Shown piece after piece: positions 46,836 through 63,718 of a stretch of DNA of 64,000 nt. The notes beneath the pieces are model-generated. The model did no database searches, was not told the origin of the DNA, and worked only from the letters and a program-made list of their open reading frames with translations. Both the position numbers and the translations under genes were made by a program. This stretch comes from Pseudomonadota bacterium. Lineage in GTDB: Bacteria; Pseudomonadota; Gammaproteobacteria; Burkholderiales; SG8-39. The stretch covers positions 81,428 to 145,427 of the forward strand of contig JAJZPQ010000001.1 of the NCBI GenBank assembly GCA_021811085.1. The letters run 5' to 3'. Numbering within the stretch: position 1 is the first letter of the stretch; every line of letters begins with the position of its first letter.

Positions 46836-47075
46836 TCCGGGGCGGGTGGGCAAGGGCAATCTCCGAATGCGGTACTTCCTTGCGCTCAAGCTACTCCGCC
46901 TGCGCCGCGCCCGCTTGAGCAAGATCAAGCATGGGCAGCTGCGCCGGCGCCGGCTCGGCACCAAGACCCTGTGGCAATCATGGGTATGCATAGCGGGCGG
47001 ATGTGGCATATTGCGGCTGCGGCAACGACAATAACAAGACATAAATAACTAAAAACTCAGGGTGGGGCTGGACGC

Positions 47076-47789
47076 ATGAACGTAAAAGCCGAGTCGAAGG
47101 CGCTTGAGCCGCTGCGGCCTCAGGCCGTTCCCGGTTACCTGCAGGAAACCTACTGGTGGGCCTACGTCCACCCGAACGCGGTGAGTTTTTTCGAGCGGCA
47201 GTGGCTGGTCAATCTGATTCTGTGGGGCAACTTCGCGCGGCTGCGCGACGCCGCGTTGGCGGAGCTCGGGCGCGAAGTTCCAGGGCGCACGCTGCAGGTC
47301 GCCTGCGTCTATGGCAATTTTACCGAGCATCTTGCTGCGCGCGTGGCTCCGGGCGGCCAGCTCGACGTCGTCGATGTGCTGCCGATCCAGTTGCGCAATC
47401 TGCGCCAGAAACTTTCGCCCTTGGCGCCGGTAACGCTGCACCAGTACGACTCGACTGCGCTTGGCTTCGAGGGCGCGAGCTTCGATCAGGCGATCGTGTT
47501 TTTTCTGTTGCACGAACAGCCGGCGGCGGCGCGCAGGCAGACGCTGCGCGAAGCGCTGCGGGTGGTCAAACCCGGCGGCAAGCTGGTGCTGGTCGATTAT
47601 CACCTGCCGCGCCGGCTGCATCCGCTGCGCTATCTGTTCCGGCCGGTGTTGCATGCGCTCGAGCCGTTCGCGCTCGATCTGTGGCGGCACGAGATCATGG
47701 AATGGCTGCCCGAGGGTGTGAGTGCGGCGCAGATACGCAAACAGACTTATTACGGCGGTCTCTATCAGAAGCTGGTGATCTCGGTGTAG
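47076..47789 (+). CDS. rquA: Rhodoquinone biosynthesis protein RquA
   Basis: VPGYLQETYWWAYVHP..V.FFERQWLVNLILWGN, LQVACVYG, FFLLHEQP are the characteristic RquA sequence. Confidence 0.9.
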   Translation: MNVKAESKALEPLRPQAVPGYLQETYWWAYVHPNAVSFFERQWLVNLILWGNFARLRDAALAELGREVPGRTLQVACVYGNFTEHLAARVAPGGQLDVVDVLPIQLRNLRQKLSPLAPVTLHQYDSTALGFEGASFDQAIVFFLLHEQPAAARRQTLREALRVVKPGGKLVLVDYHLPRRLHPLRYLFRPVLHALEPFALDLWRHEIMEWLPEGVSAAQIRKQTYYGGLYQKLVISV

Positions 47790-47811
47790 TTCGCGACTGA
47801 TCGCACCAAGC

Positions 47812-47825
47812 TTGACCTTGATCAA
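47812..47825. promoter_or_regulatory. FNR/ANR-type box (one mismatch)
   Basis: TTGAC-CTTG-ATCAA, followed by TATAGT/TATGAT at 47854-47864. Confidence 0.55.
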
Positions 47826-48036
47826 ATGCGGCAGTGCTAGCCGGCGAACGGTTTATAGTATGATTCGCGTAGGGGGATAAGCTGCCGTAGCGCGGCCTAG
47901 TCCCGGACCCGCCCCCGCTGGGCTGATGCCAGCGCGCCGAGGCTTGCACCTTGGGCGGAGTTCTGAAGCGGCACGGGCCGCACACAGCGCGGCGTAAGCC
48001 GTGCGCCGCAAGCAGGCACTGGGTGCCACCGCAGCG

Positions 48037-48310
48037 TTAGGGTCTGTTAACGCTTATCGCATGAGACGCGTTGTCTCCAAATGCGGATGACTGCAAGGCG
48101 CGCGACGAAGCCAAGGGTGGTTCCCTTGGCGAGGAGCGCAACGCCGCAGGCGCCGCATTTGGAGGCAACCCGAAGGGATGGGGATAATTTGGGCGCATCG
48201 CGGCGTTGCTCGTCGCTTGTTTGGAATGACCAAACGGCACTCCTCGCGCCTTGCGCTGCATCCCAAATTATCCCCATCGCGCTCATGCGATAAGCGTTAA
48301 CAGACCCTAA
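48037..48310. mobile_element. MITE-like element with 29-bp perfect terminal inverted repeats
   Basis: TTAGGGTCTGTTAACGCTTATCGCATGAG (48037-48065) and its exact reverse complement (48282-48310); no transposase inside; internal hairpins. Confidence 0.8.
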
Positions 48311-48347
48311 AGCGCGTTCCCAAGGGAAAATACGGAGAGCTATTGGC

Positions 48348-48776
48348 ATGAACACACGAATGGCAAGCGACGAAGTCACCGACGACATCGCCGCGATCGA
48401 GATGCATCGACAGGGTACCGAGCAGGAATCGGGACTGGTGATGGCGTGCAGCGAGGCGCTGCGCAAATTGCAGGCTTTGCTTGAACAGGAGAAAGAAGCC
48501 CTGCGCTTGCACGGTCAGGAATCGGTGCATGCGATCAATGTCGAAGTGGTGGCCAACGAAATCAAGCGCGTGCAGTCCATGACCGGCGGCAAAGGCCAGG
48601 GCGCAATGCCCAGAAATGCGAATGCGCGGCCGCGAGGGCAGCAGCCGCCGCGTCCGGAGAAAGCACATAATGCCCCGAGGAATCGCGGCCGCAGGACCAT
48701 GGGTCGCAGCGGTGGTCGCGGCGGTGGCCGCGGCGGCGGCGGTAACGGTGGCGGCGCGGGGCCCGGCGTTCGTTAG
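48348..48776 (+). CDS. Hypothetical protein with helical N-terminus and RGG-rich tail
   Basis: RBS GGAG; C-terminus GRSGGRGGGRGGGGNGGG. Confidence 0.65.
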   Translation: MNTRMASDEVTDDIAAIEMHRQGTEQESGLVMACSEALRKLQALLEQEKEALRLHGQESVHAINVEVVANEIKRVQSMTGGKGQGAMPRNANARPRGQQPPRPEKAHNAPRNRGRRTMGRSGGRGGGRGGGGNGGGAGPGVR

Positions 48777-48816
48777 TTCATTTTCATGTTCGCGCCGATA
48801 CCCTGCGGGAGCTTGC

Positions 48817-49371
48817 ATGTCTGAAACGATAGACCTGTGGCAGGCCGAGCACAGGCATTTTTCCCGGCTGCTGGATCTCCTGGAACGGCAGGTCGCTGCG
48901 TTCCACGCGGACAATCAGCCGAATTTCGAGCTGATGCTCGATCTCGTAAGCTATCTGCGTTACTTTCCGGATCGCTATCATCATCCGCGCGAAGACGTGG
49001 GGTTCGCGCGCATGGCCGAGCGCGAGCCGCAACTCAAACCCATGGTCGAGCAGCTGTTGCAGGAGCATCGGGTGATTGCCGCCGCGGGCAGCGAATTGCT
49101 CAAATACCTCGAACAAGTCGTGGACGATGTGGTGGTTGAGCGCGCCAAAGTGGAAGCCGCGGCCGCGACCTACCTGGTGTATTACCGCCGCCACCTCGCG
49201 CTGGAAGACCGCGACATCGTGCCGCGCGCGGAGCAGCTGTTGACTCCGGCGGACTGGGAGGCGGTCATGGCCGCGATTCCGCACGGCCCGGACCCGCTGT
49301 TCGGCGAAGACTTCGAGCCGCGCTATAAAGAATTGCGCCGCCAGATCGCACTCGAATCAAAAGAGGCCTGA
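48817..49371 (+). CDS. Hemerythrin-domain protein
   Basis: EHRHF, YHHPRED, LLQEH, HLALED His/Glu pattern. Confidence 0.88.
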   Translation: MSETIDLWQAEHRHFSRLLDLLERQVAAFHADNQPNFELMLDLVSYLRYFPDRYHHPREDVGFARMAEREPQLKPMVEQLLQEHRVIAAAGSELLKYLEQVVDDVVVERAKVEAAAATYLVYYRRHLALEDRDIVPRAEQLLTPADWEAVMAAIPHGPDPLFGEDFEPRYKELRRQIALESKEA

Positions 49372-49435
49372 CAGGGCCGTCATTCGCCGGCCCTTGTCGA
49401 GACGGCCAAGCGCACATTAGCGCAGCGGGGATACG

Positions 49436-50719
49436 ATGAATCCAAAACATGCATTGCCCTCCTATCTGGAACCGGCTGGCGTCGGCTCCTGGGGTGTGTT
49501 CCTGCAGCAGGTCGACCGCGTCGCAGCGTCCATGGGCGAACTTGCCTATCTGCTGGAGACGCTGAAGCGGCCCAAGCGCATCCTCATCGTCGACGTTCCG
49601 ATCAAGCGCGACGACGGCAGCGTCGCGCACTTCGAGGGCTATCGCGTGCAGCACAATGTCTCGCGTGGCCCGGGCAAGGGCGGCGTGCGTTTTCACCAGG
49701 ATGTCACGCTGTCCGAGGTGATGGCGCTCGCCGGCTGGATGAGCATCAAGAACGCGGTCATCGGCGTGCCCTTCGGCGGCGCCAAGGGCGGTGTGCGCGT
49801 CGACCCGCGCTTGCTGTCGCAACGCGAGCTCGAGCACCTGACCCGGCGCTATACCAGCGAGATCGGCATCGTCATCGGCCCGGACAAGGACATCCCGGCA
49901 CCCGATGTCAACACCAACGAAAAAATCATGGCCTGGATGATGGATACCTATTCCATCATGCACGGCGCGACTTCGACCGCGGTGGTCACGGGCAAACCGC
50001 TGTCGCTGGGCGGCAGCCGCGGGCGCCGCGACGCCACCGGGCGCGGCGTGTTCGTGTGCGGGCGCGTGGCCGCGGCCAAGATCGGCCTGCCCATCGCGGG
50101 CGCGCGCGTGTGCGTGCAGGGCTTCGGCAATGTCGGCAACGCCGCGGCGCGCTGTTTTGCCGAGGCCGGCGCCAAAGTGATCGCGGTGCAGACGGTAGAG
50201 GGTACGCTGCATGCTCCGTCAGGACTCGATGTCGCAAGGCTGGTCGCGCATCAGGACGCGCAGCGTCCGCTGGGCGAGTTTGCCGGTGCAACGATGATTC
50301 CGGATGCGGCATTCTGGGAAATCGAGTCGGAATTCCTGATTCCCGCTGCGCTGGAAAACCAGATCACTGACGCCAATGCCGGCCGGATACGCACGCGCGT
50401 GCTGCTCGAAGGGGCGAATGGCCCGACCACGCCGGAGGCCGACGATATCCTCGCCGCGAACGGCGTCGTGGTGGTGCCCGATGTGATCGCGAACGCCGGC
50501 GGCGTCACCGTGAGCTATTTCGAGTGGGTACAGGACATCTCCAGCTATTTCTGGTCCGAGGAAGAGGTCAACGGCAGGCTGGACAAAATCATGAGCGATG
50601 CTTTCAACGCGCTGTGGGAGGCCGCTACCGCGGCGCGCGTCACGCTGCGCACCTCGGCCTTCATCCTGGCCTGCCGGCGCATCCTCGAAGCGCGGCATTT
50701 GCGCGGCCTGTACCCTTAA
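49436..50719 (+). CDS. gdhA: Glutamate dehydrogenase (Glu/Leu/Phe/Val family)
   Basis: [50 protein letters not shown]. Confidence 0.9.
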
Positions 50720-50991
50720 GACGCGACTGCAGTAGGCGCAGGACGCAGCCCAAGCTGTCCTGCGAGGGTCTCCTTCCGCCGCGTTGCGCCATCGATGCGG
50801 CAATCTAAGTTCGTACCATCGAAGTGATCGGCCCAAACCCGAGACCGGACGCCGGCCCATCCCTACGCCCGCATCAGAACGCACGCGAGTAGCGCGCGTC
50901 TGGCGGTGCACGACCAATTTAGTCTGGAATTTCGCGGCGGCAACGGGCGTGAGCCAAGGTTCAATCCCGTGCAGGCAGAAACGCAGCGGGT

Positions 50992-51005
50992 TTGATCTAC
51001 ATCAA
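50992..51005. promoter_or_regulatory. Perfect FNR box upstream of mtrC-1
   Basis: TTGAT-CTAC-ATCAA; -10-like TAATCT at 51026-51031 (class II spacing). Confidence 0.8.
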
Positions 51006-51200
51006 ACCGCGTTTAGGTGCCACGGGTAATCTCCAGCTAGCATACTTATGGACTCAATGCAATTAGGGAAAACGTAGATAGGGTTAACGCTTATGCCGGT
51101 GGGGATGACGCAAATCGAGGTTCGGTCAACGTAGCAAATGGTCAAGGGCGCGACCCCATCCGGGGTCGCTCTAGCGGTTTCGCAAACGAGGGAGAAGCAG

Positions 51201-53936
51201 ATGAAATCCAAGCTTTTTAGATGGGGACTTACGGCCTTGATGGTCGGCACGCTGGCGGCCTGCGGCGGTGGAGGCGGCGGCGATACTACGGCTGCGGCTC
51301 CTGGCACCGGTACGGGCACGGGTGGCGGCACCACGACTACCACCACGCCGACCGTCGCGGTTCCGACCGGTACTTCGCCCGTGACCTTGACGGCCGCCAC
51401 CCCGGCGGCGACGTTCGCGGCGCTCACGCCGGCTGTACCGGCAGTCGCGGTGTCGATCAATAGCCCGCCCAAGGTCACCTTTTCGCTGACAGACGGCAAC
51501 GGCAACCCGATCATCGGTTTCGGGAGCAAATCGCAAAGCGCGACTGCAACGGTCGCGAGCTATCCCAACCTCGCCTTCGGCTTGGCCAAGCTGGTTCCCG
51601 GCGCGAACGGCGCCCCGAGCAAGTGGGTCAACTACATCGTGACCACGGTGCCGACCTATAAAAGCGCGACCGACAAGACCATCGTCCCTGCCGCCCCCAG
51701 AGGGCCGATCTACGACCGAGAAGGAACATTGGTCGACAACGGCAACGGCACTTATACCTACACTTTCTACCGCGACATCACCAAGGTCAAGGACGAGGTC
51801 GCGGCAGCCACGCTGACTGCACCCAACGTCGCGGCGGATCTGGGCGATCTGACCTTCGATCCGAATGCGGTTCACCGCCTGACCATCGAGATTTCCGGCT
51901 ACGCCCCGGGCACGGGCACCAACACTGCCGACGGCGTGCAAAAGACCGCCGGTGTTCGGATGGCAAATCCGGTCAACGTCATTTATGACTTCATCCCTGC
52001 CACCGGCAAAGCGGTGAGCGCCACGGATCCCTCGCGGGAAATCGTCGCGATTGCCAAGTGCAACGAGTGCCACGGCAAGCTCGCGATGCATGGGGCGGGG
52101 AAGATAGACACCAGATATTGCGTCGTTTGTCACACCGATCAGCGTAAATATGGCAGAAGTGAAGCGACGACCACTGCCACCGGCTATGACGCCACAAAGG
52201 GCACCTACCTGATCAATAGCATTACGATCGGCAACTTCCCCACCGAAATCCACAAAATTCACATGGGTAAGGAACTGACGAAGACCGGCTACAACTACGC
52301 CAACGTGCTGTTCAACGAAGTCACCTTTCCGCAGCCGATCACCAATTGCGTCAAATGCCATGATGGCTCGGCGACCTCTACCGCGAAGACCGCGAACGGC
52401 GACAACTGGAAGAGCGTGCCGACCCGGCTCGCCTGCGGCGCCTGCCACGACGGCATCAATTTCGCCACCGGCAAAGGCTTCACCTTGGCCGATGCGGCGG
52501 CGGGCAACACGACCAGTGTTGGCCACATCGGCGGCGCAAAAGCCGACGACAGCCAGTGCGCGCTGTGCCACGACGCAACGACCATCCCGGTCTACCATGT
52601 CACGGTCGATCCGACCGGCGCAAACGGCCGCGGCGGCTACCCGCTGAACACGGCAACGGACACGCCCACGGTGGGTTTCCCCGCGGGCCAAGGTCCTTCG
52701 ATCCCGCTCGCCTCGCAGCTCAATCTGCCGTCCGGCGTGTACAAGATCAATTTCGAGATCAAGCAGGTCACAGTCGCCGGTGCAGCCGGCGCCAAGAAAG
52801 CGACCGTCGTCTATCGCATCCTGAAAGACGGCCAGCCGGTGACCTTGAATGCGACCGGCAACCTGATCACCGGAGTCGATGGCTCGCCCGGCATCTATAT
52901 CGCCTACGCGACCGCGCAGGACGGCATCGCGGCTCCGGCCGATTGGAATGCGACCAAGAGCGCCTCAGTCAAGGCCATGCGCGACAAGACCGGCGGGAAC
53001 TCGCAGACCGGCCCGGACGCCAGCGGCTTCTACACCGCGACGCTGGGCGCCACCATCCCGGATGACGCGAAGATGGTCACGGCGGCAGTTGGCGTCGATT
53101 ACAACGGCTTCGTGCAACTGAATCATGCCGACTATCCGAAGGGCATCAGGCTGCGTGAGCCGCAATTCGTGATGAAAGTCGCGGATGGCTTCACGCCGCG
53201 CCGCAGCATCGTCGCCAACGCCAAGTGCAATCAGTGCCATGGTCAGCTGGGTATCAGCCCATCGTTCCATAGCGGTGCACGCAACAACGGCGAAGGCTGC
53301 GCAATTTGCCACGATGCCAACCGTGCTACGGGCCACGTCGGTGCAGCAAATGGCTTCGGCGGTGGCTGGTCGGTCGGCGTCAAGAGCCTGGTGCACTCTA
53401 TCCACGCGTCGTCCAAGCGCGAGCAGGCGTTCAGCTACGAAGCCACCGCGGCGAATCCGAACGGCTTCAAGGAAGTCACGTATCCGGGCATCCTGAAGAA
53501 CTGCGAAACCTGCCACGTGGCCGGTAGCTACGACTTCAGCGGGACGGCAAACAACGCCGCTCTGCCCTATCTGCTCTGGACCACAGAGGCGAAAGGGGAC
53601 ATGAGCAACCCGACGAACGCGGCTTCCATCGGGCTTTCACCTTGGGTGACGACCTTGGGCAAAGGGCAGATCGACTACAGGAGCGACAACCTAGTCAGCT
53701 CGCCGATCGCGTCGGCCTGTTTCGGTTGCCACGACAGCAGCCTCGCGGTTCAGCATATGCAGTCGAACGGCGGCACGCTCTATGCGCTGTTCTCGAGCGT
53801 ATCCTCGCTCGGCACCACTGCAGCGCGTCCGGCTGTTGGTACCGCTTCGACCATGACGTTCACGAAGAGCGAGCAGTGCACGCTGTGCCACCTGTCGGGC
53901 AAGGTGGCGGACATCAAGGCCATGCATGCGAAGTAA
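51201..53936 (+). CDS. mtrC: Decaheme OmcA/MtrC family outer-membrane cytochrome lipoprotein 1
   Basis: Lipobox LAAC; 10 CxxCH motifs in a 5+5 arrangement; IHKIH and VHSIH distal His motifs. Confidence 0.92.
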   Translation: MKSKLFRWGLTALMVGTLAACGGGGGGDTTAAAPGTGTGTGGGTTTTTTPTVAVPTGTSPVTLTAATPAATFAALTPAVPAVAVSINSPPKVTFSLTDGNGNPIIGFGSKSQSATATVASYPNLAFGLAKLVPGANGAPSKWVNYIVTTVPTYKSATDKTIVPAAPRGPIYDREGTLVDNGNGTYTYTFYRDITKVKDEVAAATLTAPNVAADLGDLTFDPNAVHRLTIEISGYAPGTGTNTADGVQKTAGVRMANPVNVIYDFIPATGKAVSATDPSREIVAIAKCNECHGKLAMHGAGKIDTRYCVVCHTDQRKYGRSEATTTATGYDATKGTYLINSITIGNFPTEIHKIHMGKELTKTGYNYANVLFNEVTFPQPITNCVKCHDGSATSTAKTANGDNWKSVPTRLACGACHDGINFATGKGFTLADAAAGNTTSVGHIGGAKADDSQCALCHDATTIPVYHVTVDPTGANGRGGYPLNTATDTPTVGFPAGQGPSIPLASQLNLPSGVYKINFEIKQVTVAGAAGAKKATVVYRILKDGQPVTLNATGNLITGVDGSPGIYIAYATAQDGIAAPADWNATKSASVKAMRDKTGGNSQTGPDASGFYTATLGATIPDDAKMVTAAVGVDYNGFVQLNHADYPKGIRLREPQFVMKVADGFTPRRSIVANAKCNQCHGQLGISPSFHSGARNNGEGCAICHDANRATGHVGAANGFGGGWSVGVKSLVHSIHASSKREQAFSYEATAANPNGFKEVTYPGILKNCETCHVAGSYDFSGTANNAALPYLLWTTEAKGDMSNPTNAASIGLSPWVTTLGKGQIDYRSDNLVSSPIASACFGCHDSSLAVQHMQSNGGTLYALFSSVSSLGTTAARPAVGTASTMTFTKSEQCTLCHLSGKVADIKAMHAK

Positions 53937-54018
53937 CAGCCTGACCGAAGTTTGGTCAGGCCAATAATGCCGGGGTGCGCTTAGGCGTGCCTCGGTACAA
54001 GTGGAGAAACACCGCAAT

Positions 54019-54059
54019 AAACGACCCGGGGCGGCAACGCTACCGGGTCGTTTCTTTTT
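54019..54059 (+). terminator. Intrinsic terminator after mtrC-1
   Basis: AAACGACCCGG...CCGGGTCGTTT stem followed by a T-run. Confidence 0.75.
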
Positions 54060-54379
54060 ATGACGCCATAAGCGGCTCTTGCGATCGATTTGCTCGGCAG
54101 CTGCGATGGCCTCGAGCAATCGGCCATCGTCAGGCAGATGGGAAATCCAAGAGGGGGTTCCCAATTTCGTTGAACGCGGCGATCAATACTGGTTTCTGAT
54201 CGAATAAGCTCCTGACGCGTAAGCGAGATTCGCGCTAGGGTGCCGGTGCGCCCAGATCACCGCGATGTCGTAAATGTGGGCGACCAAGGCAACGTTCGTC
54301 AAGTCGAGACCGAGCGTCAAATCGCCGTCGCGCGGATCCCATACGCGCTTTGTAGGCGCTCTTGCACCCAAACTGGCAT

Positions 54380-54393
54380 TTGATCCAGATCAA
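54380..54393. promoter_or_regulatory. Perfect FNR box upstream of mtrC-2
   Basis: TTGAT-CCAG-ATCAA; -10-like TACTTT at 54415-54420. Confidence 0.8.
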
Positions 54394-54531
54394 GATGGTT
54401 TGGTTCCAAAGATGTACTTTTACACAAAGCCATTTTGCGAAAAACCAGCCAGAGGCAGCCCTTGACCAGTTGCCCGCAGCGAACCCTGACCGAAATTCAT
54501 CATTTAACCTTGACCAGCTGAGGAGACCGAA

Positions 54532-57399
54532 GTGAAGATTCCTAACCTAATGAGCGAGAACAGGTCCACTTTACGGTGGATCAGTTGCGTCGCGGCGGGT
54601 CTGTTGACCGCCGCGCTAGCCGGTTGCGGCGGTGGCGGCGGAGGTGGCGACACCACGGCAGCCGCGGGCGGCACTGGCGGTACTACCACACCTCCTCCCA
54701 CAACTACGGTCACTGCGCCAGCGGGCGTACCGCAAAATGGAACCAACTCGGTTGCCGCCACTACGGCGACAACTGCAGCCTGGACGGCACTTTCGCCGCA
54801 GGTCACGGTGTCCAGCGTCACCATCAACAGTCCTCCCGTCGTCAAATTCACGGTTAAGGATGCCGCCGGCAATCCGGTAGTGGGACTGGGCAATAAGTCC
54901 CTGAACGCAAGCACGGGCATTGTCGGCCTGACCAACCTCGGTTTCACCCTGGCCAAGCTGGTGCCTGGCAGCAATGGTGCGCCGAGCAAGTGGGTCAACT
55001 ATCTGGTGTTTACCCCGGCAACCATTGCGCAGAAGACCGCCGTGCCCGCGACTGCGTCGTGCGATGCAGCGACCAATGCGACCTGGTGCGGCAGCTTTCC
55101 GACTTACGATAGGGAAGGCACGCTTATCGATTTCGGCGACGGCAGCTATCAATACACCTTCTACCGCAATCCCAAGGATGCGGCCACTATTGTCGCGAGC
55201 CTGATTGACTCCGCTGACGGCCTGTCGAAGAAAGCCGACCTTGGCGACGTGAGCTTCGATCCGACCGCGACCACCCGTCTGGGGATCCAGATCGGCGGCA
55301 TCGCTCCTGGCACAGGCACCAATTACGTTGACGCCACCACATTTGCGCCGATCTCCGGCGGTCCGGCCAGAGTTGATATGGTTAACCCCGCAAATCTCGT
55401 GTATGACTTCCGGCCCGATGGCGCAACGGTTGCGAACACGCGCAATGTGGTCACAGTCGATTCCTGCAGCGATTGCCATGCCGGGAAAGTGCTGAATCAC
55501 GTCAGCCGCAAGGACCCGAATTATTGCGCGACCTGCCACACCGACCAGATCAAGTACAGCTTCGATCAGGAAGCGCCCATGCTCGCGGACGGCATTACGT
55601 TCTCCGTGCAGACCGGAACGAATGCTCAGGTTCGCCCGAATCAGGCCGTCGTCAATGGCCGGGCCGTGGGTAACCTGCCCAATATGGTGCACAAGATTCA
55701 CATGGGCGAGGGCCTAGTCAAACAAGGCTATCACTACAACAACGACGACCTGGGCCTGTTCAACGAGGTCAAGTTCCCGCAGGATATCCGCAATTGCACC
55801 AAGTGCCACGACGGTTCTGCGAACGCAACGCACAAGACTGCCGACGGCGACAACTGGAAGAACGTCCCGAGCCGGCTCGCCTGCGGCGCCTGCCACGACG
55901 GCATCAACTTTGCGACGGGCAAAGGCATTACGCTCGAGGATGCAGCTTTGATCGCTCTGGGCAAAACCCCGACCGGCGTTGGCCACATCGGCGGTGCAAA
56001 AGCCGACGACAGCCAGTGCGTGCTGTGCCATGACGCAACGACGATTCCGGTGTACCACACCCCGGTGACCCCGATCGCTGCTTCGATCCAGATCAGCGGT
56101 GTCGCCAGCGGTTATACGAATGCGGCATCGGTCGCGGCCAATCAAAACAACCTGCCGACAGGCGCGATCAAAGTCACCTATGACGTGAAGAGCGTCGCGC
56201 GCAACACGAGCAAGCAGCCGGTGATTGTGTTCCGCATCCTGCAAAACGGCGCGCGCGCCGACTTCAATACCTATAGCGCCACCGGCAAGACGGAGCTGTG
56301 GGACAATTACGTCGGCTCGCCGAGTGCGTATTTCGTGTATGCGGTGCCGCAGGATGGCATTACCGCTCCAGCCGATTTCAACGTCTCCGCGTCCGCTTCC
56401 GTCAAACGTTTGTGGAATGGCACGGCGACCGGCACCAGCGCCGGCACGTTGACTGGTCCGGATTCGAACGGCTACTACACGGCAACGCTGACCGGCGTGG
56501 TGATTCCCGACAGCGCGGTGATGCTCACGGGCGGTATCGGATTCACCTACGACTTGCCGAACAATCCGCCGCTGACCCAGACCAATTTGTCTGACTATCC
56601 GTACAATACGACCAGCAAGATCGGCGGTCTCATCGTGGCGGCGCCTACGGCGCAACTGGTTGCAAGCTCAGGCGCCGCAACGGGCGGCACCGGCGGTGCC
56701 TATACGGGGCGCCGGCAGATCGTGGAAAGCGCGCGTTGCAACAAGTGCCACGAGAAACTGGGTGTGTTTACCGAGGAAGCCTTCCACGCCGGGCAGCGCA
56801 ACGACGCCAATACCTGCGCCTGGTGCCACCGGCCGAATCAAACCAGCAGCGGCTGGTCCGCGGATTCGGAAGTGTTCGTCCACGGTATCCACGCGGCGGA
56901 CAAGCGCAGTGTGCCGTTCACCTGGCATGCGACCGATCCGTCCGACAATTTCTCCAACATTGGCTATCCGGGCGTACTGAAGAAATGCGAAACCTGCCAC
57001 CTGCCGGGAACGTACGACTTCAGCGCGAGCGCGTCGGCCAGCGCTTTGCCGAATCGCTTGTACAGGACGGTGGCGACGGGCACGCTCGCTTCGACTGCAA
57101 GCAATGCGTTCACGTTCTCGCCTTACATTACCAAGGATAACAACTATGGCGCCGGCTTCACCTTTAACGCTGCTACCGGTGTCACCACTGCTGAAGCTGC
57201 AGGCACGACACTGGTGAACTCGCCGATCGCGGCAGCCTGCTTCTCCTGCCACGACACCGCTCTTGACAAGGACCACATTACGTCAAATGGCGGTTCGCTC
57301 TACGAAGCGCGCAGCACGGCGCTGGCCAAGACCGAGCAATGCACGCTGTGCCACCTGGCGGGCAAAGTGGCGGATATCAAGGTCATGCATGCGAAGTAA
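54532..57399 (+). CDS. mtrC: Decaheme OmcA/MtrC family cytochrome lipoprotein 2
   Basis: RBS GAGGAG and GTG start; lipobox LAGC; 10 CxxCH motifs. Confidence 0.92.
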   Translation: MKIPNLMSENRSTLRWISCVAAGLLTAALAGCGGGGGGGDTTAAAGGTGGTTTPPPTTTVTAPAGVPQNGTNSVAATTATTAAWTALSPQVTVSSVTINSPPVVKFTVKDAAGNPVVGLGNKSLNASTGIVGLTNLGFTLAKLVPGSNGAPSKWVNYLVFTPATIAQKTAVPATASCDAATNATWCGSFPTYDREGTLIDFGDGSYQYTFYRNPKDAATIVASLIDSADGLSKKADLGDVSFDPTATTRLGIQIGGIAPGTGTNYVDATTFAPISGGPARVDMVNPANLVYDFRPDGATVANTRNVVTVDSCSDCHAGKVLNHVSRKDPNYCATCHTDQIKYSFDQEAPMLADGITFSVQTGTNAQVRPNQAVVNGRAVGNLPNMVHKIHMGEGLVKQGYHYNNDDLGLFNEVKFPQDIRNCTKCHDGSANATHKTADGDNWKNVPSRLACGACHDGINFATGKGITLEDAALIALGKTPTGVGHIGGAKADDSQCVLCHDATTIPVYHTPVTPIAASIQISGVASGYTNAASVAANQNNLPTGAIKVTYDVKSVARNTSKQPVIVFRILQNGARADFNTYSATGKTELWDNYVGSPSAYFVYAVPQDGITAPADFNVSASASVKRLWNGTATGTSAGTLTGPDSNGYYTATLTGVVIPDSAVMLTGGIGFTYDLPNNPPLTQTNLSDYPYNTTSKIGGLIVAAPTAQLVASSGAATGGTGGAYTGRRQIVESARCNKCHEKLGVFTEEAFHAGQRNDANTCAWCHRPNQTSSGWSADSEVFVHGIHAADKRSVPFTWHATDPSDNFSNIGYPGVLKKCETCHLPGTYDFSASASASALPNRLYRTVATGTLASTASNAFTFSPYITKDNNYGAGFTFNAATGVTTAEAAGTTLVNSPIAAACFSCHDTALDKDHITSNGGSLYEARSTALAKTEQCTLCHLAGKVADIKVMHAK

Positions 57400-57472
57400 A
57401 GCGATCGAGGTTTGATCGTTGCAATGAAACCCGGGGCATGGCTAGCCATGCCCCGGAGCAAGCAGGACCAAG

Positions 57473-57510
57473 CGACCCGGGGCGGCGACGTCACCGGGTC
57501 GTGTTTTTTT
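57473..57510 (+). terminator. Intrinsic terminator after mtrC-2 (homologous to the mtrC-1 terminator)
   Basis: CGACCCGG-GGCGGCGACGTCA-CCGGGTCG followed by a T-run. Confidence 0.75.
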
Positions 57511-57532
57511 GGCAATCGCCCCATGCTTCGTG

Positions 57533-57561
57533 TTGACAAGGGGTCGTATGTTTCCTATAAA
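57533..57561 (+). promoter_or_regulatory. Near-consensus sigma70 promoter of the ComEA-like gene
   Basis: TTGACA (57533-57538), 17-bp spacer, TATAAA (57556-57561). Confidence 0.75.
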
Positions 57562-57593
57562 CGCTATTCGTATTCCATCTCGGGAGTTCTTTC

Positions 57594-57959
57594 ATGCAAA
57601 ACCGCATCATCAATTCCGTAGTGATTGCTCTCGCCTTGCTGCTGTCAGCGGGTGTTTCCGTGGCCGCCGAAAGCAAGGCAGGTACGCCGGCGGAAGCAAA
57701 GCCGGCCGCTAAGGCCAAAGCGCCCGAAAAGAACGCCAAGGCAAAACCTGCCAAGGCGGCCGCGAAAGTCAAACTCGTGGACATCAACAGCGCGAGCAAG
57801 GCGGAGCTGACGAAACTTCCGGGCATCGATGACGCGACGGCCGACAAGATCATCGCCGGCCGCCCGTACAACAGCAAAGCGCGCCTGGTCACAAACAAGA
57901 TCATTACGACGGGCACATACGGGAATATCAAGCACCTAATCATCGCCAAACAGAAGTGA
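57594..57959 (+). CDS. Exported ComEA-like helix-hairpin-helix protein
   Basis: Signal peptide, Ala/Lys linker, VDINSASKAELTKLPGI..A.KIIAGRPY. Confidence 0.85.
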   Translation: MQNRIINSVVIALALLLSAGVSVAAESKAGTPAEAKPAAKAKAPEKNAKAKPAKAAAKVKLVDINSASKAELTKLPGIDDATADKIIAGRPYNSKARLVTNKIITTGTYGNIKHLIIAKQK

Positions 57960-58228
57960 GTTCGGAGCGGGAAGTCAAGCCGGAATAATTCCAGAAAACG
58001 CAGTGACGCCGGCGTGTTGCTTGAATGCTGCGTTTATTTGCAAGATAAGCCAATCTGACATAGCATTCAGCGTGGTTTTTCGCTGTAGCGAGGCGGCTGC
58101 TGGACTTGGAGCTTTCGCAGGCTTTGCCAAGTCCCGGACGGTGTAGGGGCCGAGCGATTTGTGTAACGGGGACGCGCAAAGACTTTCTAAGCAGTGGGGG
58201 CAGCCAGTCCCCAAATAACGGGGTGGTC

Positions 58229-60544
58229 ATGAGAAAAAATCGATCGTCATACCAATGGATCGACGTTGTTCCGCGAGCCGGGGATATTGCTAGAGGTCTG
58301 GTGGCGGGTTTGCTGGCCCTCGTGCTGGCTGGCTGCGGGGGCGGTGGTGGCGGTGGCGGCAGCACAGGAACCGCGGCCGGTCCCGGATCGGCGACGGGCG
58401 GAGCGGCGGCGCTCGCCGCGTCCACGGCACTGAACATGACGATCACCAGTGTGACGATCAACAGTCCGCCGGTGGTGAATTTCACCGTTACCAACGAAGC
58501 GGGCGTAGGCATGGCCGGCCTCACTGCGGCAGATCTGCGCTTCAACATCGCCAAGCTGGTGCCGGGATCGAACGGCGGCCCGAGCACCTGGCAAAATTAC
58601 ATCAACCGCGCCAACGGCGGTGCGGTGCAGGGCACGCAGGAGCGTTCAGCTGCCGGCTACGCTTTCGGCACCTTGGCGAACAACGGCAACGGCAGCTATA
58701 CATATACCTTCGCTACCGACATCAAGACCGCTACTTGTCCTGCGCCGTGTACCGACGCCGACGGCAAGGCCCTCGATATCAGCTATCAACCGGGCCTGAC
58801 GCACCGGGTCACGATCCAACAGGCCAACAGCACCTATCCGAAGAGTGCTGGGGTATACGATTTCGTGCCCTCTGGCGCCACGCTAACAACGACGCGCGAT
58901 ATCGTCTCCAACGCCAAATGCAACGCCTGCCATAGTCAGCTGAGCGCGCATGGCACGCGCGTCGACACCAAATTGTGCGTTACCTGCCATAACCCGGGCT
59001 CCTGGGTTGCCGGAGCGCCCAATACGCCTGTGGATTTCAAGGTAATGATCCACAAGATTCACGATGGCGACGCATTGCCGAGCGTGCTCGCCGGCACGCC
59101 GTATGTGGTCAACGGAACCAATTTCTCCTCGGTCGCGTTCCCGCAGGATGTGCGCAACTGCACCAAGTGCCATGACGGTACTCCGGGTGCGGCGAATGCA
59201 ACCGCGCAGGGCGATAACTGGAAAATGCAACCGAGCATGGAGGCCTGCGGCGCCTGCCACGACGATGTCTACTTCGGTACAAAGCCGGATCCGGCCAAAC
59301 CGTATCAGACGGTGGTGCACCCCGGCGGCGTGCAGACCGATAACAGCGCTTGCTCGACGTGCCACACGGCGGGCAAGTTTCCGGACGCCAAGGATATTAT
59401 CGTGGCGCATAACTTCCCGACACGCTTCAAGGCGGCATCGGCGAAATTCCAGTACAACATTATCAGCGTCACACCGACGACGGCAGGTTCGAAGCCGGTC
59501 GTCACGTTCTCGGTCACGGATCCGACCAACGGCGACAAGCCCTACGACCTCAAAGCCGATCCGGCTTTCACGGCCACGGCAAGCGGCACGAGCCGACTGG
59601 CGGTCAGCATCGGCTGGAGTACAACGGACTTCGGCAACAGCAGCAGCGGCCAGAAATACGGCCAACCGATCAGCATCGACGCCCTGGCAACTTCGGTCGC
59701 CGGTGCCGCGGCCGGGACCTATACCGTGACTTCTCCGGTCGCGGTTCCCGCGGCGCAGACCGGCACGCTGCGTGTCACCATCGATGGCCACCCCGCGGGC
59801 GATGTCACCACGGCGGGAACGTTTACCGACCGGTTGAAAGTCAGGAGCGTGTTCAAGGATGCTGCGATCACTGGCAGCGTAACGGCGCGCCGGGTAGTCG
59901 TGGACGTCGCCAAATGCGACGTTTGCCATGGCGTGCTGAGTCTGCACGGAAATAATCGCACCGACGAGCCGAGTGTATGCGTTGTCTGCCACAATCCGGA
60001 TGCGACCGATGCGGGCCGGCGTCCGGCTACATTGGGCGTGCTCACCGGCGGTGTGGACGGCAAGCTGGAGGAGTCGATCGACTTCAAGAGGATGATCCAC
60101 GCGATCCATGCGGGACAAGCGAGCAACGGCGGATTCCGCACCAAGGGCATCGTCGTATATGGCTTCGGCGGCAGCGTGAACGACTTCAGCAAAGTCGTGT
60201 TCCCCGGAAAGCTGAACGATTGCTCGGTCTGCCATGCCGGCACTTCGTATCAATTGACGGGTACCTGGGCGGCGCCCGTGGCCAACGGCGTTGCCGGAAG
60301 CACCATCAGCACGGGCGCTTCTGCGACTGATCCTGCGGATAACCTGAGAATCACGCCCACCGCGGCGGTGTGCTCGTCGTGTCATGACAGCGCGGTAGCG
60401 CAGACGCACATGCAGGACAGCTTCAATGCCGGCAACTTCTCGGCGACGCAGGCGACCATCAAGGCTGCCGCGCCGGAAGCTTGCACCTTCTGCCACGGGC
60501 CGGGTAAAGCGCTCGACGTTCAGACGGTGCACGGTGTACAGTAA
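58229..60544 (+). CDS. mtrC: Decaheme OmcA/MtrC family cytochrome lipoprotein 3
   Basis: Lipobox LAGC; 10 CxxCH motifs; MIHKIH and MIHAIH. Confidence 0.92.
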   Translation: MRKNRSSYQWIDVVPRAGDIARGLVAGLLALVLAGCGGGGGGGGSTGTAAGPGSATGGAAALAASTALNMTITSVTINSPPVVNFTVTNEAGVGMAGLTAADLRFNIAKLVPGSNGGPSTWQNYINRANGGAVQGTQERSAAGYAFGTLANNGNGSYTYTFATDIKTATCPAPCTDADGKALDISYQPGLTHRVTIQQANSTYPKSAGVYDFVPSGATLTTTRDIVSNAKCNACHSQLSAHGTRVDTKLCVTCHNPGSWVAGAPNTPVDFKVMIHKIHDGDALPSVLAGTPYVVNGTNFSSVAFPQDVRNCTKCHDGTPGAANATAQGDNWKMQPSMEACGACHDDVYFGTKPDPAKPYQTVVHPGGVQTDNSACSTCHTAGKFPDAKDIIVAHNFPTRFKAASAKFQYNIISVTPTTAGSKPVVTFSVTDPTNGDKPYDLKADPAFTATASGTSRLAVSIGWSTTDFGNSSSGQKYGQPISIDALATSVAGAAAGTYTVTSPVAVPAAQTGTLRVTIDGHPAGDVTTAGTFTDRLKVRSVFKDAAITGSVTARRVVVDVAKCDVCHGVLSLHGNNRTDEPSVCVVCHNPDATDAGRRPATLGVLTGGVDGKLEESIDFKRMIHAIHAGQASNGGFRTKGIVVYGFGGSVNDFSKVVFPGKLNDCSVCHAGTSYQLTGTWAAPVANGVAGSTISTGASATDPADNLRITPTAAVCSSCHDSAVAQTHMQDSFNAGNFSATQATIKAAAPEACTFCHGPGKALDVQTVHGVQ

Positions 60545-60585
60545 AAGCGAAGATCAACAAGAGCCATGCTAACGGACAGACAACG

Positions 60586-61563
60586 ATGAAACTCAAGAAA
60601 CCATTATTTGCAGCGCTGCTACTGTTGTCTGGTTTTGCGTTCAGCGCCGCCGCGGAGGATAAGCCTGCGGCGAAGGCCGCCGAGCCGCCGCCGGCGCCGA
60701 TGAGCATGGGCACGGAATACACCGAGAAGGGCGCCGACACCTGCCTGCAGTGCCACGTCGAGGGCGGCGATTTTCCGGTGTACGAGATTTTCAAGACCAA
60801 GCACGGCAATCGCGCCGACAAGCGCACGCCCTTTGCCCCCGGGCACTTGCAATGCGAGGCCTGCCACGGCCCGGGCAAGAAGCATGCCGATAACGGCGGC
60901 GGCCCGGACGGCATCAACAGCCAGAAGCGCACTTCCTTCCTGACACCGCAGCAGCGCAACAAGTATTGCCTGGCATGCCACCAGAATGGCGCGCGCACCG
61001 GCTGGATCGCGAGCACGCACGACGCGAACAATGTCGCCTGCAGCGATTGCCACAAGATCCATGCCGAGCGCGATCCTGTGCTCACGAAAGCGACCCAACC
61101 GGATGTCTGCTACAAATGCCACAAGAAGGAACGCGCGGACTTTTCCAAGCCGTCGGCGCACCCGGTTCGATTCGGCACCATGACTTGCAGCGACTGCCAC
61201 GCGCCGCATGGCGCGAATACGGCTGCCTTGCTGGTAAAGCCGACCGTGAATCAGACCTGCTACACCTGCCACGCGGAAAAGCGCGGGCCCTTCCTGTGGG
61301 AGCATGCGCCGGTGGCGGAGGACTGCACCTTGTGCCATTACCCGCACGGCTCGGTCAATCAATGGCGGCTGAAGAAGAATCCGCCGCTGCTGTGCCAGCA
61401 GTGCCATTCGGTGGCAGGGCACCCGTCAGTCGCGCGCACCAGCGCCTCGTTGCCTGGAGGCGCAGGCGGCGGGCAGGCCTTCCTGCTCGCAGGCAGCTGC
61501 CTCAATTGCCATTCGCAGATACACGGTTCGAACCATCCGTCCGGATATAAGCTGATGCGCTAG
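60586..61563 (+). CDS. mtrA: Decaheme periplasmic cytochrome, MtrA/DmsE family
   Basis: Signal peptide; 10 CxxCH motifs; EKRGPFLWEHAPV and HGSNHPSG. Confidence 0.95.
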   Translation: MKLKKPLFAALLLLSGFAFSAAAEDKPAAKAAEPPPAPMSMGTEYTEKGADTCLQCHVEGGDFPVYEIFKTKHGNRADKRTPFAPGHLQCEACHGPGKKHADNGGGPDGINSQKRTSFLTPQQRNKYCLACHQNGARTGWIASTHDANNVACSDCHKIHAERDPVLTKATQPDVCYKCHKKERADFSKPSAHPVRFGTMTCSDCHAPHGANTAALLVKPTVNQTCYTCHAEKRGPFLWEHAPVAEDCTLCHYPHGSVNQWRLKKNPPLLCQQCHSVAGHPSVARTSASLPGGAGGGQAFLLAGSCLNCHSQIHGSNHPSGYKLMR

Positions 61564-61624
61564 CCGGCGCGCGAACGACGATGCGAGCAGCGACGACGAG
61601 ATAAACCGCACACAGGACAAGAAC

Positions 61625-63718
61625 ATGAAGACCTCAAATCAACTGCTACTGCTAGGCGTGCTGTCGGCGCTGTCATCGGCGACAGCGGCCGCGGCCGACG
61701 GCGCTGCCGCTGTCGATACCTCGCAGTGGAAATGCGAGTCCTGCAAATTCGAGCAGGGGGTCAGCGGGACGCTGGACGTGGGGGCGGGGACGGTTTCGGA
61801 CAAGTCGGCCGAATTCGGCCAATACAACGGCCTGCAAAAGAAAGGTGGATTTTTCATCGGCGGCGCCTCGGTGCGCTCGCGCGGCGCGGACGGAACCTAC
61901 TGGAATCTCGATGCATCGAATCTCGGCCTGGACACGCGCTCCGTCGATGCCGAGGGCGGAAAGCAGGGCAGTTATAAGCTGCGGCTGAAGTATGACGAGA
62001 CGCCGCACCGCATCTGGGACGGTGCGCTGACGCCTTTCGCCGGCAGCGGCGGCGCGTCGCTGACCCTGCCCGCAGGTTTCGCCGCGGCCACGACCGCCGG
62101 CATGCCTTTGGCCGGCCAGCTCAACCAGGTCGACCTGGCCACGCAAAGAAAGCAAGTGGGCGTGGGCGGATCCTGGATCCCCAACACGAACTGGGAATAC
62201 GCATTCAATTATCGCCACGAGACGCGCGATGGCAACAAGGCGACGGCCGGCTCGTTCTTCGTCAATTCCACCCAGCTGATCGAACCCACGGACTATGTGA
62301 CCGATCAGGTGGACGCATCCGCTTCCTACGCCAGCAAGAAATTTCAGCTGAAATTTGCCTATTACGGATCGAAGTTCACCAACAGCAACCACTCGTTGAC
62401 TTGGGCTGACCCCTACGGTACGGCCGCTTTTCTTGGGACGTTTCCCGGCGCTGCCGCTGGTCAGCTGGCGCTGCCGCCGGACAATCAATTTCATCAGGTC
62501 TCGGCCACAGCCGGATACCAGATCAGCGACAAGACGCGATTCAGCGGCGACATCGCTATAGGCCGCATGACGCAGAACGACAGCTTCCTTCCGTATGGCA
62601 CCGCTGTTCCGGGCCCAGGCGGTTCGCTGAATGGCAGGGCGAAGACCTTGGACGCAGGCCTGAAACTCAGTTCGGCCGTCACCGATCGGCTGCGGCTGAA
62701 CGCGGCGTATACGCATAACGATCGCGACAACGAGACGCCGCAATCGCTCTACGCGGTAATATCGACCGATATGTTTCCCGGGGCGCCCAGAACGAATCTG
62801 CCCTACAGCTTCAAGCAGGATAAATTGAAGTTGAGCGCCGATTACCGGGTCTCGGAGCGCCTGCGCGGCGCGGTGGGTGCGGATTTCGATTCGCACAAGC
62901 GCACCTATGCGGAAGTCGATACGACGCACGAGAACACGGCCTGGGGCAAGGTCACTTCGAGTCTGACGGACAAGATCGACCTGACGTTGAAGCTCGCACA
63001 TGGCGAGCGCAGGAATTCGGGCACGTTCCAGCCGATCGCCGGGATTACGCCGCCCGAGAATCCGCTGCTCAGACGATTCAATCTGGCGAATCGCACGCGG
63101 GATACGGTGGGCCTGCGCGGTGACTTTACGCCGATGGAACGCCTCAGCATCGGACTCGGACTGGATACGTCCGAGGACAAATACGCCGATTCAACGATCG
63201 GTCTGACCAACGCCAAGGATTACAATTTGAACGGCGACGTGTCGCTGGTCGTGTCGGAGCGCACCAATTTGCGGCTTTTCGCGATTCATCAAGAGATCAA
63301 GTCGAAACAAGCCGGCAGCCAGACATTTTCAGTCCCCGATTGGTTTGCCGACAACAAGGATACGATCGATACGTTCGGCCTTGGCATAAAGCATGCAGCA
63401 ATCAAGGACAAGCTCGACATCGGCGCGGACTGGAGCGCCTCGCGCTCGCGCAGCCAGATCGACGTCAGCACCGGCGTCTCGAATCCGGCCTTCCCCGACA
63501 TCAGGGCTAAACTGGATACGCTGAAGCTCTACGCCACGTATCGCCTGAAGGAGAGCATGTCGCTGCAGGCGGGCTACTGGATCGAACGCTATAGCACTCA
63601 GGACTGGATGCTGGACAACGTTGTGCCCAGCACCATCCCCAATGTCCTGACCATGGGACTGCAGGCGCCGCAGTACCACGTGAACGTTCTGAGCCTGGCG
63701 CTGAGGTACAAGTTCTAG
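61625..63718 (+). CDS. mtrB: MtrB/PioB family outer-membrane beta-barrel
   Basis: Signal peptide; N-terminal CxxC (WKCESC); LPPDNQFHQ; C-terminal aromatic residue (RYKF). Confidence 0.93.
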   Translation: MKTSNQLLLLGVLSALSSATAAAADGAAAVDTSQWKCESCKFEQGVSGTLDVGAGTVSDKSAEFGQYNGLQKKGGFFIGGASVRSRGADGTYWNLDASNLGLDTRSVDAEGGKQGSYKLRLKYDETPHRIWDGALTPFAGSGGASLTLPAGFAAATTAGMPLAGQLNQVDLATQRKQVGVGGSWIPNTNWEYAFNYRHETRDGNKATAGSFFVNSTQLIEPTDYVTDQVDASASYASKKFQLKFAYYGSKFTNSNHSLTWADPYGTAAFLGTFPGAAAGQLALPPDNQFHQVSATAGYQISDKTRFSGDIAIGRMTQNDSFLPYGTAVPGPGGSLNGRAKTLDAGLKLSSAVTDRLRLNAAYTHNDRDNETPQSLYAVISTDMFPGAPRTNLPYSFKQDKLKLSADYRVSERLRGAVGADFDSHKRTYAEVDTTHENTAWGKVTSSLTDKIDLTLKLAHGERRNSGTFQPIAGITPPENPLLRRFNLANRTRDTVGLRGDFTPMERLSIGLGLDTSEDKYADSTIGLTNAKDYNLNGDVSLVVSERTNLRLFAIHQEIKSKQAGSQTFSVPDWFADNKDTIDTFGLGIKHAAIKDKLDIGADWSASRSRSQIDVSTGVSNPAFPDIRAKLDTLKLYATYRLKESMSLQAGYWIERYSTQDWMLDNVVPSTIPNVLTMGLQAPQYHVNVLSLALRYKF

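Follow-up and report, generated by a model that had tools for sequence, protein, structure and literature searches.

Mtr-type respiration of metals and electrodes has been worked out in menaquinone-containing Gammaproteobacteria, and the same kind of conduit is also driven by ubiquinone-only Betaproteobacteria, such as Rhodoferax ferrireducens. In these conduits MtrA is a periplasmic decahaem cytochrome threaded into the outer-membrane beta-barrel of MtrB, and ubiquinol is too oxidising for CymA-type enzymes. Shewanella CymA oxidises menaquinol, and R. ferrireducens, an Fe(III) reducer, makes rhodoquinone, the potentials being -63 mV for rhodoquinone, -80 mV for menaquinone and +100 mV for ubiquinone (PMC6529003, PMC12175506). 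Here we describe a 64,000-nucleotide stretch of DNA (the window; positions 81,428 to 145,427 of contig JAJZPQ010000001.1, assembly GCA_021811085.1, GTDB lineage Burkholderiales; SG8-39) in which rquA, the gene for rhodoquinone biosynthesis, stands upstream of an mtrCAB cluster. The original prediction, made from the sequence of this region, had proposed that rhodoquinone may replace menaquinone behind Mtr. Having followed it up computationally, we lean towards the view that the region is an oxygen-regulated (FNR-type) anaerobic respiration island of an uncultured, ubiquinone-only Burkholderiales genus, in which rhodoquinol would be the low-potential donor to Mtr.

RquA is an atypical S-adenosylmethionine (SAM)-dependent aminotransferase that converts ubiquinone to rhodoquinone. 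Fumarate reduction is the one known physiological role of the Rhodospirillum rubrum-type system, RquA with rhodoquinol:fumarate reductase (Stairs et al. 2018; Neupane et al. 2022). The gene has been reported near complex II genes, and near 'cytochrome' genes in general terms only (Stairs et al. 2018). The nearest described conduits are the Group 4 mtrCAB clusters, which include that of Rhodoferax (Albidoferax) ferrireducens T118 and have several MtrC paralogues; in betaproteobacterial clusters a helix-hairpin-helix gene adjoins the Group 4-type mtrC (Baker et al. 2022, mBio, PMC8805035). The same paper places frdABCD beside Group 4 mtrCAB, attributes it to succinate supply for haem synthesis or to bidirectional transfer, and makes no mention of rquA, rhodoquinone, ubiquinone or methyltransferase. 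The pairings of rquA with frd (Stairs 2018) and of frd with Group 4 mtr (Baker 2022) are thus already published. In full-text literature searches that combined rhodoquinone or rquA with MtrC, MtrCAB or extracellular electron transfer we met no relevant paper; the author of the original prediction likewise knew of no description of this coupling.

The locus is like the Shewanella oneidensis CymA-(STC/FccA)-MtrCAB pathway in having MtrA in an MtrB barrel, surface lipoproteins of the MtrC/OmcA kind, the order mtrC-mtrA-mtrB, an N-terminal CXXC in MtrB, multiple MtrC paralogues and, here as a prediction, anaerobic induction. Shewanella, however, relies on menaquinol and the NapC/NirT-type tetrahaem CymA, whereas in this genome there is no CymA, the menaquinone (men/mqn) genes that we searched for were not found, rquA lies beside the conduit, and CbcL-like and NrfCD-type candidate quinol dehydrogenases are encoded elsewhere. 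With the Group 4 clusters the window shares several MtrC paralogues and the helix-hairpin-helix gene; islands related to Group 4 carry frdABCD, cymA (mtoC) and ccm, whereas in the genus of the window frd is unlinked and rquA and a hemerythrin gene stand beside mtr. The likeness to the RquA-fumarate reductase system extends to the enzyme family, the expected anaerobic expression, O2-independent ubiquinone synthesis (PMC11707229) and, in many relatives, linkage of rquA to frd; the difference is that here rquA stands beside an outer-membrane conduit.

Every gene named in the original prediction was recovered by open reading frame (ORF) listing and profile searches of the window (Table 1), so that the neighbourhood of rquA, hemerythrin gene, three mtrC, mtrA and mtrB with its 40 CXXCH motifs is real. 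The rquA product aligns to positions 1-216 of the 218 of the equivalog model NF038261 (NCBIfam, cut-off 175 bits), while UbiE-type models score below 40 bits on it; the same model was above its cut-off in none of 14 control genomes. The motif LQVACVYGN replaces the usual SAM-binding motif I of methyltransferases, and its residues Q74, A76, V78, Y79 and G80 are invariant across our RquA alignment (A1). An altered SAM-binding motif I distinguishes RquA from UbiE-type methyltransferases (Stairs 2018). Judged by these sequence features, the gene is a true rquA. It is 80-88% identical among genus relatives, and a divergent kinase-like gene lies upstream of it across a common intergenic region of about 216 bp. 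The genome also encodes, at C107:60268-61059, a protein of 263 amino acids with an N-terminal transmembrane helix, whose best family is RquA but at 111 bits, below the cut-off; a copy of this type is found in nearly every genome of the genus, rquA-less ones included.

The 40 CXXCH motifs of the cluster fall into four cytochromes of ten each. All three mtrC genes, mtrA and mtrB score above the cut-offs of their models (209 bits for TIGR03507, 192 for TIGR03508 and 240 for TIGR03509), and the last three genes follow in the order C-A-B with gaps of 41 bp (mtrC3-mtrA) and 61 bp (mtrA-mtrB). The likely start of each MtrC lies just before a lipobox cysteine, and the lipoboxes (LAAC or LAGC) precede Gly-rich linkers; MtrC1-3 are thus predicted outer-surface decahaem lipoproteins of the OmcA/MtrC family. 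MtrB has a signal peptide, and its only two cysteines are held in an N-terminal CXXC (CESC, at about residue 37), the first cysteine of which is needed for Fe(III) reduction in Shewanella (PMC12175506). Among the MtrC paralogues mtrC3 is the best conserved (68-79% identity across the genus), and one MtrC of the window is 70% identical to a Rhodoferax MtrC (L048). The helix-hairpin-helix gene, which was absent from the earlier gene list, corresponds to that of the Group 4 clusters.

The assembly (4.48 Mb, 98% complete) contains the ubiquinone genes, with UbiA, UbiE and UbiB 52, 58 and 52% identical to their Escherichia coli counterparts, and those for the O2-independent UbiU, UbiV and UbiT (60, 44 and 38%). 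In contrast, tblastn with E. coli MenA, MenC and MenD gave no match against the genome, the best match to the MenD model reached 79 bits against a cut-off of 244, and PF02621 (MqnA/D) had no match. The only MenB-like match (51%) belongs to the broad crotonase family. Because the Ubi genes and rquA were found and the Men and Mqn markers were not, the organism can, on its gene content, be expected to make ubiquinone and, through RquA, rhodoquinone. Such a genome fits published data (PMC11707229), according to which rquA tends to accompany the O2-independent ubiquinone pathway and is seldom found with menaquinone.

For the inner-membrane step we could find in the genome neither an ORF of CymA layout (about 190 amino acids, four haems) nor any match, by tblastn, to two CymA-like proteins of related islands. 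Two other complexes, both unlinked to mtr, are candidates. At C17:11559-13462, next to a sigma-54-type two-component system, lies a split CbcL-like pair, a seven-haem cytochrome and a PhsC/FdnI-type cytochrome b; a Rhodoferax metagenome-assembled genome (MAG) has beside its rquA a pair with which the two share 35% and 55% identity. At C9:1219-4261 there is an NrfC/NrfD-type complex with a membrane-anchored hexahaem cytochrome, the C-terminal half of which resembles the periplasmic shuttle PdsA (dihaem domain). Either complex may feed Mtr. Geobacter CbcL is a multihaem cytochrome c fused to an FdnI/HydC-type cytochrome b and uses menaquinol, in place of which rhodoquinol would serve here as the low-potential quinol at hand. 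The likeness of our candidates to Geobacter CbcL and to the Aeromonas NetBCD-PdsA modules is at family level, all matches to the NetB, PdsA and FdnI models being below cut-off. The genome further encodes two paralogous octahaem cytochromes of the tetrathionate-reductase family (C3:6628-8917 and C130:176851-179088; TIGR04315, 624 bits for the C3 copy), each with a C-terminal anchor and an adjoining PhsC-like cytochrome b.

Within the genus RquA was above cut-off in 17 of 23 genomes, and MtrB was found in 18 of 23. The gene order, with the kinase-like gene divergent, is rquA, small ORF, hemerythrin gene, in some genomes a glutamate dehydrogenase gene (gdh), two to four mtrC, mtrA and mtrB. It is kept in every contig that is long enough (G000, which is this genome, G001, G003, G009, G013, G015, G020 and G021), and in G022 up to the contig end. 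The raw presence and absence table (13 genomes with both genes, four with rquA only, five with mtrB only, one with neither) gives an apparent lack of association, but we set it aside because assemblies break where mtrC paralogues are repeated: in many cases the contig with rquA is of 3-5 kb, and that of G022, a genome counted among those without mtrB, ends in a fragment of mtrC. The 'rquA only' and 'mtrB only' genomes of the genus are mostly such assembly breaks. One genome, G004 (locus L016, G004:C183), is different, for there rquA, the small ORF and the hemerythrin gene are followed directly by the ABC-ATPase and EamA-like genes that in our genome come after mtrB. Since the RquA tree places G004 within a group of relatives that do have mtr, the simplest explanation is loss of the mtrC-mtrB block. 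This clean absence, and a GC content of 0.61 in the mtr block against 0.66 in the flanks, suggest that mtr is a separable cassette that G004 has lost.

The search for FNR-type boxes (TTGAT-N4-ATCAA) reproduced those of the original prediction. Six boxes with at most one mismatch are present in the window, where 0.86 would be expected and none of 100 shuffled sequences reached six. Four of them (46915, 47812, 50992 and 54380) are kept in position in 10-18 related genus loci, and a fifth, with one mismatch (49736), lies inside gdh and is conserved as coding sequence. The box at 46915 occurs in the same place, with the consensus TTGAG-N4-ATCAA, in at least 12 genus loci, and all genus loci have a perfect or one-mismatch box upstream of their mtrC genes. 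The box at 47812 is followed after 28 nt by TATAGT, both being invariant or nearly so in an alignment of 14 genus loci (A2). Because this invariant TATAGT, a conserved leader and a codon-periodic ORF follow the box, we predict that the small ORF and the hemerythrin gene are expressed from a promoter formed by the two elements. A generic scan for sigma-70 promoters and terminators gave counts no higher than in shuffled sequence. Two FNR homologues encoded on contig C38 keep the C-x2-C-x5-C cluster, the central Cys and the E--SR recognition helix, and a perfect FNR-type box is also found before frdA on contig C86. FNR control of the island, as originally proposed, is therefore supported both by the positional conservation of the boxes and by the intact cysteine cluster of the two homologues.

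Table 1. Features of the rquA-mtrCAB region (coordinates are positions in the window)
Feature	Coordinates	Strand	Description
FNR-type box TTGAGCAAGATCAA	46915-46928	.	One mismatch; 148 bp upstream of the rquA ATG, in the divergent intergenic region
rquA	47076-47789	+	Rhodoquinone biosynthesis enzyme; NF038261 equivalog, 307.5 bits
FNR-type box TTGACCTTGATCAA with TATAGT	Box 47812-47825; -10-like 47854-47859	+	One mismatch; just after rquA
MITE-like insertion (MITE, miniature inverted-repeat transposable element)	48037-48310	.	274 bp; 29-bp terminal inverted repeats
Small ORF	48348-48776	+	142 amino acids; conserved with three-base (codon) periodicity in 14 loci
Hemerythrin HHE-domain gene	48817-49371	+	184 amino acids; PF01814, 54 bits
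Glutamate dehydrogenase (gdh)	49436-50719	+	PF00208 and PF02812
FNR-type box TTGATCTACATCAA	50992-51005	.	Perfect; upstream of mtrC1
mtrC1	51138-53936	+	TIGR03507, 593 bits; PF22113; 10 CXXCH; likely start 51201; lipobox LAAC
FNR-type box TTGATCCAGATCAA	54380-54393	.	Perfect; upstream of mtrC2
mtrC2	54532-57399	+	TIGR03507, 449 bits; 10 CXXCH; likely start 54550; lipobox LAGC
Helix-hairpin-helix (ComEA-like) secreted protein	57594-57959	+	PF12836, 36.6 bits
mtrC3	58106-60544	+	TIGR03507, 521 bits; 10 CXXCH; likely start 58229; lipobox LAGC
mtrA	60586-61563	+	TIGR03508, 300.5 bits; 10 CXXCH; signal peptide
mtrB	61625-63718	+	TIGR03509, 542 bits; PF11854, 607 bits

Linkage of rquA to mtr, cymA or cbcL-like genes recurs at the operon level beyond the genus. 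Scanning GTDB species genomes with the RquA alignment gave 80 loci with 58-88% identity. Of the 72 non-genus loci, 15 have MtrAB or MtrCAB genes within 10 kb of rquA; among the 29 of them whose two flanks each extend for 8 kb or more, the figure is 10. A NapC/NirT (CymA-type) tetrahaem gene is found within 2.5 kb of rquA in eight loci, and a CbcL-like pair of multihaem cytochrome c and cytochrome b, fused or split, stands beside it in about 19. Several loci form strings, the first four of which are co-directional: mtrA-mtrB-rquA-frdAB in G768 and G770; FNR box-cymA-mtrC-mtrA-mtrB-rquA-frdAB in G622; cbcL-like-mtrC-mtrA-mtrB-rquA-frdAB in G607 and G668; rquA-c-cymA-mtrA-mtrB in G526; and mtrC-mtrA-mtrB-pdsA-cymA-rquA in a Steroidobacteraceae MAG (L043). 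With no frd nearby, rquA abuts a cbcL-like gene in L070 and L092, and stands in the arrangement cymA | rquA-ccm, the bar marking divergence, in L071, L075, L076 and L078. In the RquA tree the conduit-linked loci are scattered through two betaproteobacterial clades, and the linked conduits span several MtrB subfamilies (70%, 48% and 23-30% identity to the MtrB of the window). In the last four loci named, from Rhodoferax and Polaromonas MAGs, a divergent monohaem-CymA-monohaem unit flanks rquA on one side, and on the other there is a co-directional run with gene sizes like those of ccmABC...EFG; beyond these sizes, a single weak ATPase match is all that points to ccm. Such a locus may unite functions for the quinone, the quinol dehydrogenase and haem attachment.

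Co-occurrence was analysed in an order sample (401 genomes, even across families) and in a family sample (301 genomes of the family that holds Rhodoferax). In the latter 21 genomes have RquA and 26 a member of the MtrB family; chance would bring the two together in 1.8 genomes, and 18 carry both (odds ratio 204, p 5e-20). RquA was found in 13 of the 14 MtrC-bearing genomes. Eight of the 18 double-positive genomes have rquA and an MtrB-family gene within 6 kb (binomial p 3e-16 for proximity given co-occurrence), and in six genomes of the family mtrB and rquA are less than 160 bp apart. In the order sample three of six double-positive genomes have the two within 15 kb (binomial p 1e-5). In addition, 37 of 50 further rquA-bearing genomes without a conduit in the rquA flank carry an MtrB-family gene elsewhere in the genome. 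All the co-occurrence statistics given here, for either sample, ignore shared ancestry and joint transfer of the genes as an island. Of the conditions that the original prediction set for its own refutation, the two that sequence can decide, a complete menaquinone pathway and a lack of enriched rquA-mtr linkage, turned out in its favour. The unrelated gdh in between, and the 3.35-3.4 kb from the rquA stop to mtrC1, could mean that rquA, hemerythrin gene and mtr are neighbours by chance; but with this proximity in both samples, a linkage that recurs in at least five gene orders and several families, and conserved FNR-type boxes shared among the genes, we find that barely credible.

In the scheme that we lean towards, we infer that rhodoquinol feeds Mtr, and likewise the direction of electron flow and the quinol dehydrogenase used. 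At low O2, FNR would induce rquA, the small ORF with the hemerythrin gene, the two accessory mtrC and the unlinked frdABC(D). RquA would convert part of the ubiquinone pool, made without O2 by UbiTUV, to rhodoquinone (E0' about -63 mV). Rhodoquinol would then be the low-potential donor for two exits, the established quinol:fumarate reductase and a proposed multihaem quinol dehydrogenase, for which the CbcL-like pair on C17 and the NrfCD-type hexahaem complex on C9 are the candidates. Periplasmic cytochromes would carry electrons from this dehydrogenase to MtrA/MtrB, and the three surface MtrC would hand them on to Fe(III), Mn(IV), humic substances or electrodes as terminal acceptors.

Several observations weigh against this scheme. 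The window encodes no quinol dehydrogenase, and no FNR-type box with at most two mismatches precedes the core mtrC3-mtrA-mtrB operon. G004 keeps rquA and the hemerythrin gene without mtr; therefore rquA has an Mtr-independent role. The enrichment of rquA with mtr holds for genus synteny and the Rhodoferax family but does not extend to the order, where 39 genomes have RquA, 56 have an MtrB-family gene and six have the two together, no more than chance would give (5.4 expected, p 0.81), and where only two of seven MtrC-bearing genomes have rquA, which is not significant; Mto/Pio-type conduits and other RquA clades predominate in a sample drawn evenly across families. Menaquinone does not appear to substitute in the five rquA-less MtrC genomes (G387, G152, G177, G356 and G361), in which neither MenD nor MqnA/D was found; MtrCAB can therefore exist without rquA or these menaquinone markers. 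G387, which lacks rquA, MenD and MqnA-D, offers a comparison case, for its locus L101 (G387:C18; same family, another genus) has mtrC-mtrC-(mtrA)-mtrB 57-64% identical to those of the window in a different neighbourhood. Finally, fumarate reductase, the established consumer of rhodoquinol, is present here (frdABC, C86:8415-11351, on a separate contig and not adjacent to mtrCAB) and could alone explain rquA, and in most islands frd lies between or beside rquA and mtr.

This last point leads to an account in which rquA serves rhodoquinol:fumarate reductase only, and its proximity to mtr reflects a transferred anaerobic island (mtr, frd, rquA and ccm) under shared FNR control, from which frd has moved elsewhere in the genus. 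It would accommodate the fumarate reductase genes found within 10 kb of rquA in about 45 of the 80 loci, directly abutting it in many, the published linkage of rquA to complex II (Stairs 2018), the perfect FNR-type box before the frd genes of this genome, G004, the five MtrC-bearing genomes with neither rquA nor menaquinone markers, and the lower GC content of the mtr block, as of a separately acquired cassette. However, linkage of rquA to mtr, cymA or cbcL-like genes without frd in the flank is seen in this genus and in nine further loci (L043, L090, L118, L070, L092, L071, L075, L076 and L078), and elsewhere rquA is not merely next to frd but placed between mtrB and frdA in one co-directional string. 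A ubiquinone-only cell, moreover, has no other evident low-potential donor for CymA- and CbcL-type enzymes, the studied homologues of which use menaquinol. We therefore consider this account rather unlikely. In favour of a direct link to Mtr is the recurrent operon-level placement of rquA with mtr, cymA and cbcL-like genes, even in loci that have no frd; caution is called for because of the order-wide null result, the Mtr genomes without rquA or menaquinone markers, and the established role of frd.

The Mtr-bearing genomes that lack rquA and menaquinone markers may run their conduit oxidatively, and the same could be asked of the window: electrons from Fe(II), reduced humics or a cathode would then enter through MtrCAB to the quinones, with rhodoquinone and fumarate (or nitrate) reductase as the sink. 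Several MtrCAB-bearing Betaproteobacteria have been implicated in oxidative transfer, with the suggestion that frd might serve both directions (Baker et al., PMC8805035), and many rquA-linked conduits are MtrAB-only, like MtoAB/PioAB, and without CXXC. But reduction of rhodoquinone (-63 mV) by Fe(II)-derived electrons would be uphill, with ubiquinone the better acceptor, the conduit of the window has three MtrC and a CXXC-bearing MtrB, which are features of reductive systems, and the one cultured relative with both traits, R. ferrireducens, reduces Fe(III). An inward conduit thus seems to us distinctly improbable.

The genes between rquA and mtrC1 were partly new. The small ORF, absent from the earlier gene list, encodes a conserved helical N-terminal part and an Arg/Gly-rich tail, had no match in Pfam, NCBIfam or the PDB, ends 40 bp before the hemerythrin gene and is preceded by a GC-rich conserved leader of about 250 nt. 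A minus-strand ORF (48047-48466) is not a gene, since the conservation there comes from the small ORF on the plus strand. The 274-bp MITE-like insertion, likewise not mentioned in the original prediction, interrupts the conserved 5' leader that precedes the small ORF and is missing from 13 other genus loci; the genome has another copy of 93% identity (C118:18407-18668) and fragments on C63, C109, C148 and C130, and the element is likely a miniature transposable element outside the system. The gdh gene is probably a variable insert unrelated to the system: between hemerythrin gene and mtrC it is found only in G000, G001, G013 and three short contigs, and is missing from G003, G009, G015, G020, G021 and G022. 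The hemerythrin gene, in contrast, is 74-89% identical in the genus, always 0.8 kb after rquA, and, as seen in G004, goes with rquA and not with mtr. Its product has His/Glu motifs resembling di-iron ligands, and a PDB search with it gave no match. Purified RquA requires O2 in vitro, and in vivo some oxidant is assumed (Neupane 2022); as a speculation, the FNR-controlled hemerythrin could supply or buffer that oxidant.

Because the rquA-mtr pairing recurs in many relatives, often in one operon, our results suggest that rhodoquinone does here the job that menaquinone does in classical metal reducers. A broader and more tentative proposal, which we hold as possible rather than probable when all its parts are taken together, is that ubiquinone-only Betaproteobacteria in general use rhodoquinone as the low-potential quinone for extracellular electron transfer of the Mtr and porin-cytochrome types, with CymA- and CbcL-like enzymes as rhodoquinol:cytochrome c oxidoreductases. 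In that proposal rquA would separate reductive, mineral-respiring Mtr from oxidative Mto/Pio-like conduits, the frdABCD-mtrCAB neighbourhood would thereby be explained, and in this genus hemerythrin may supply or buffer the O2 of RquA near anoxia. If rhodoquinol does feed Mtr, rquA would be a genomic marker of reductive electron transfer in environmental Burkholderiales (groundwater, permafrost, wastewater), and the fumarate reductase that travels with Group 4 mtr clusters would be accounted for. Introducing rquA instead of a whole men pathway could then let engineered ubiquinone-only hosts run Mtr, and the roles of rhodoquinone would extend beyond fumarate reduction.

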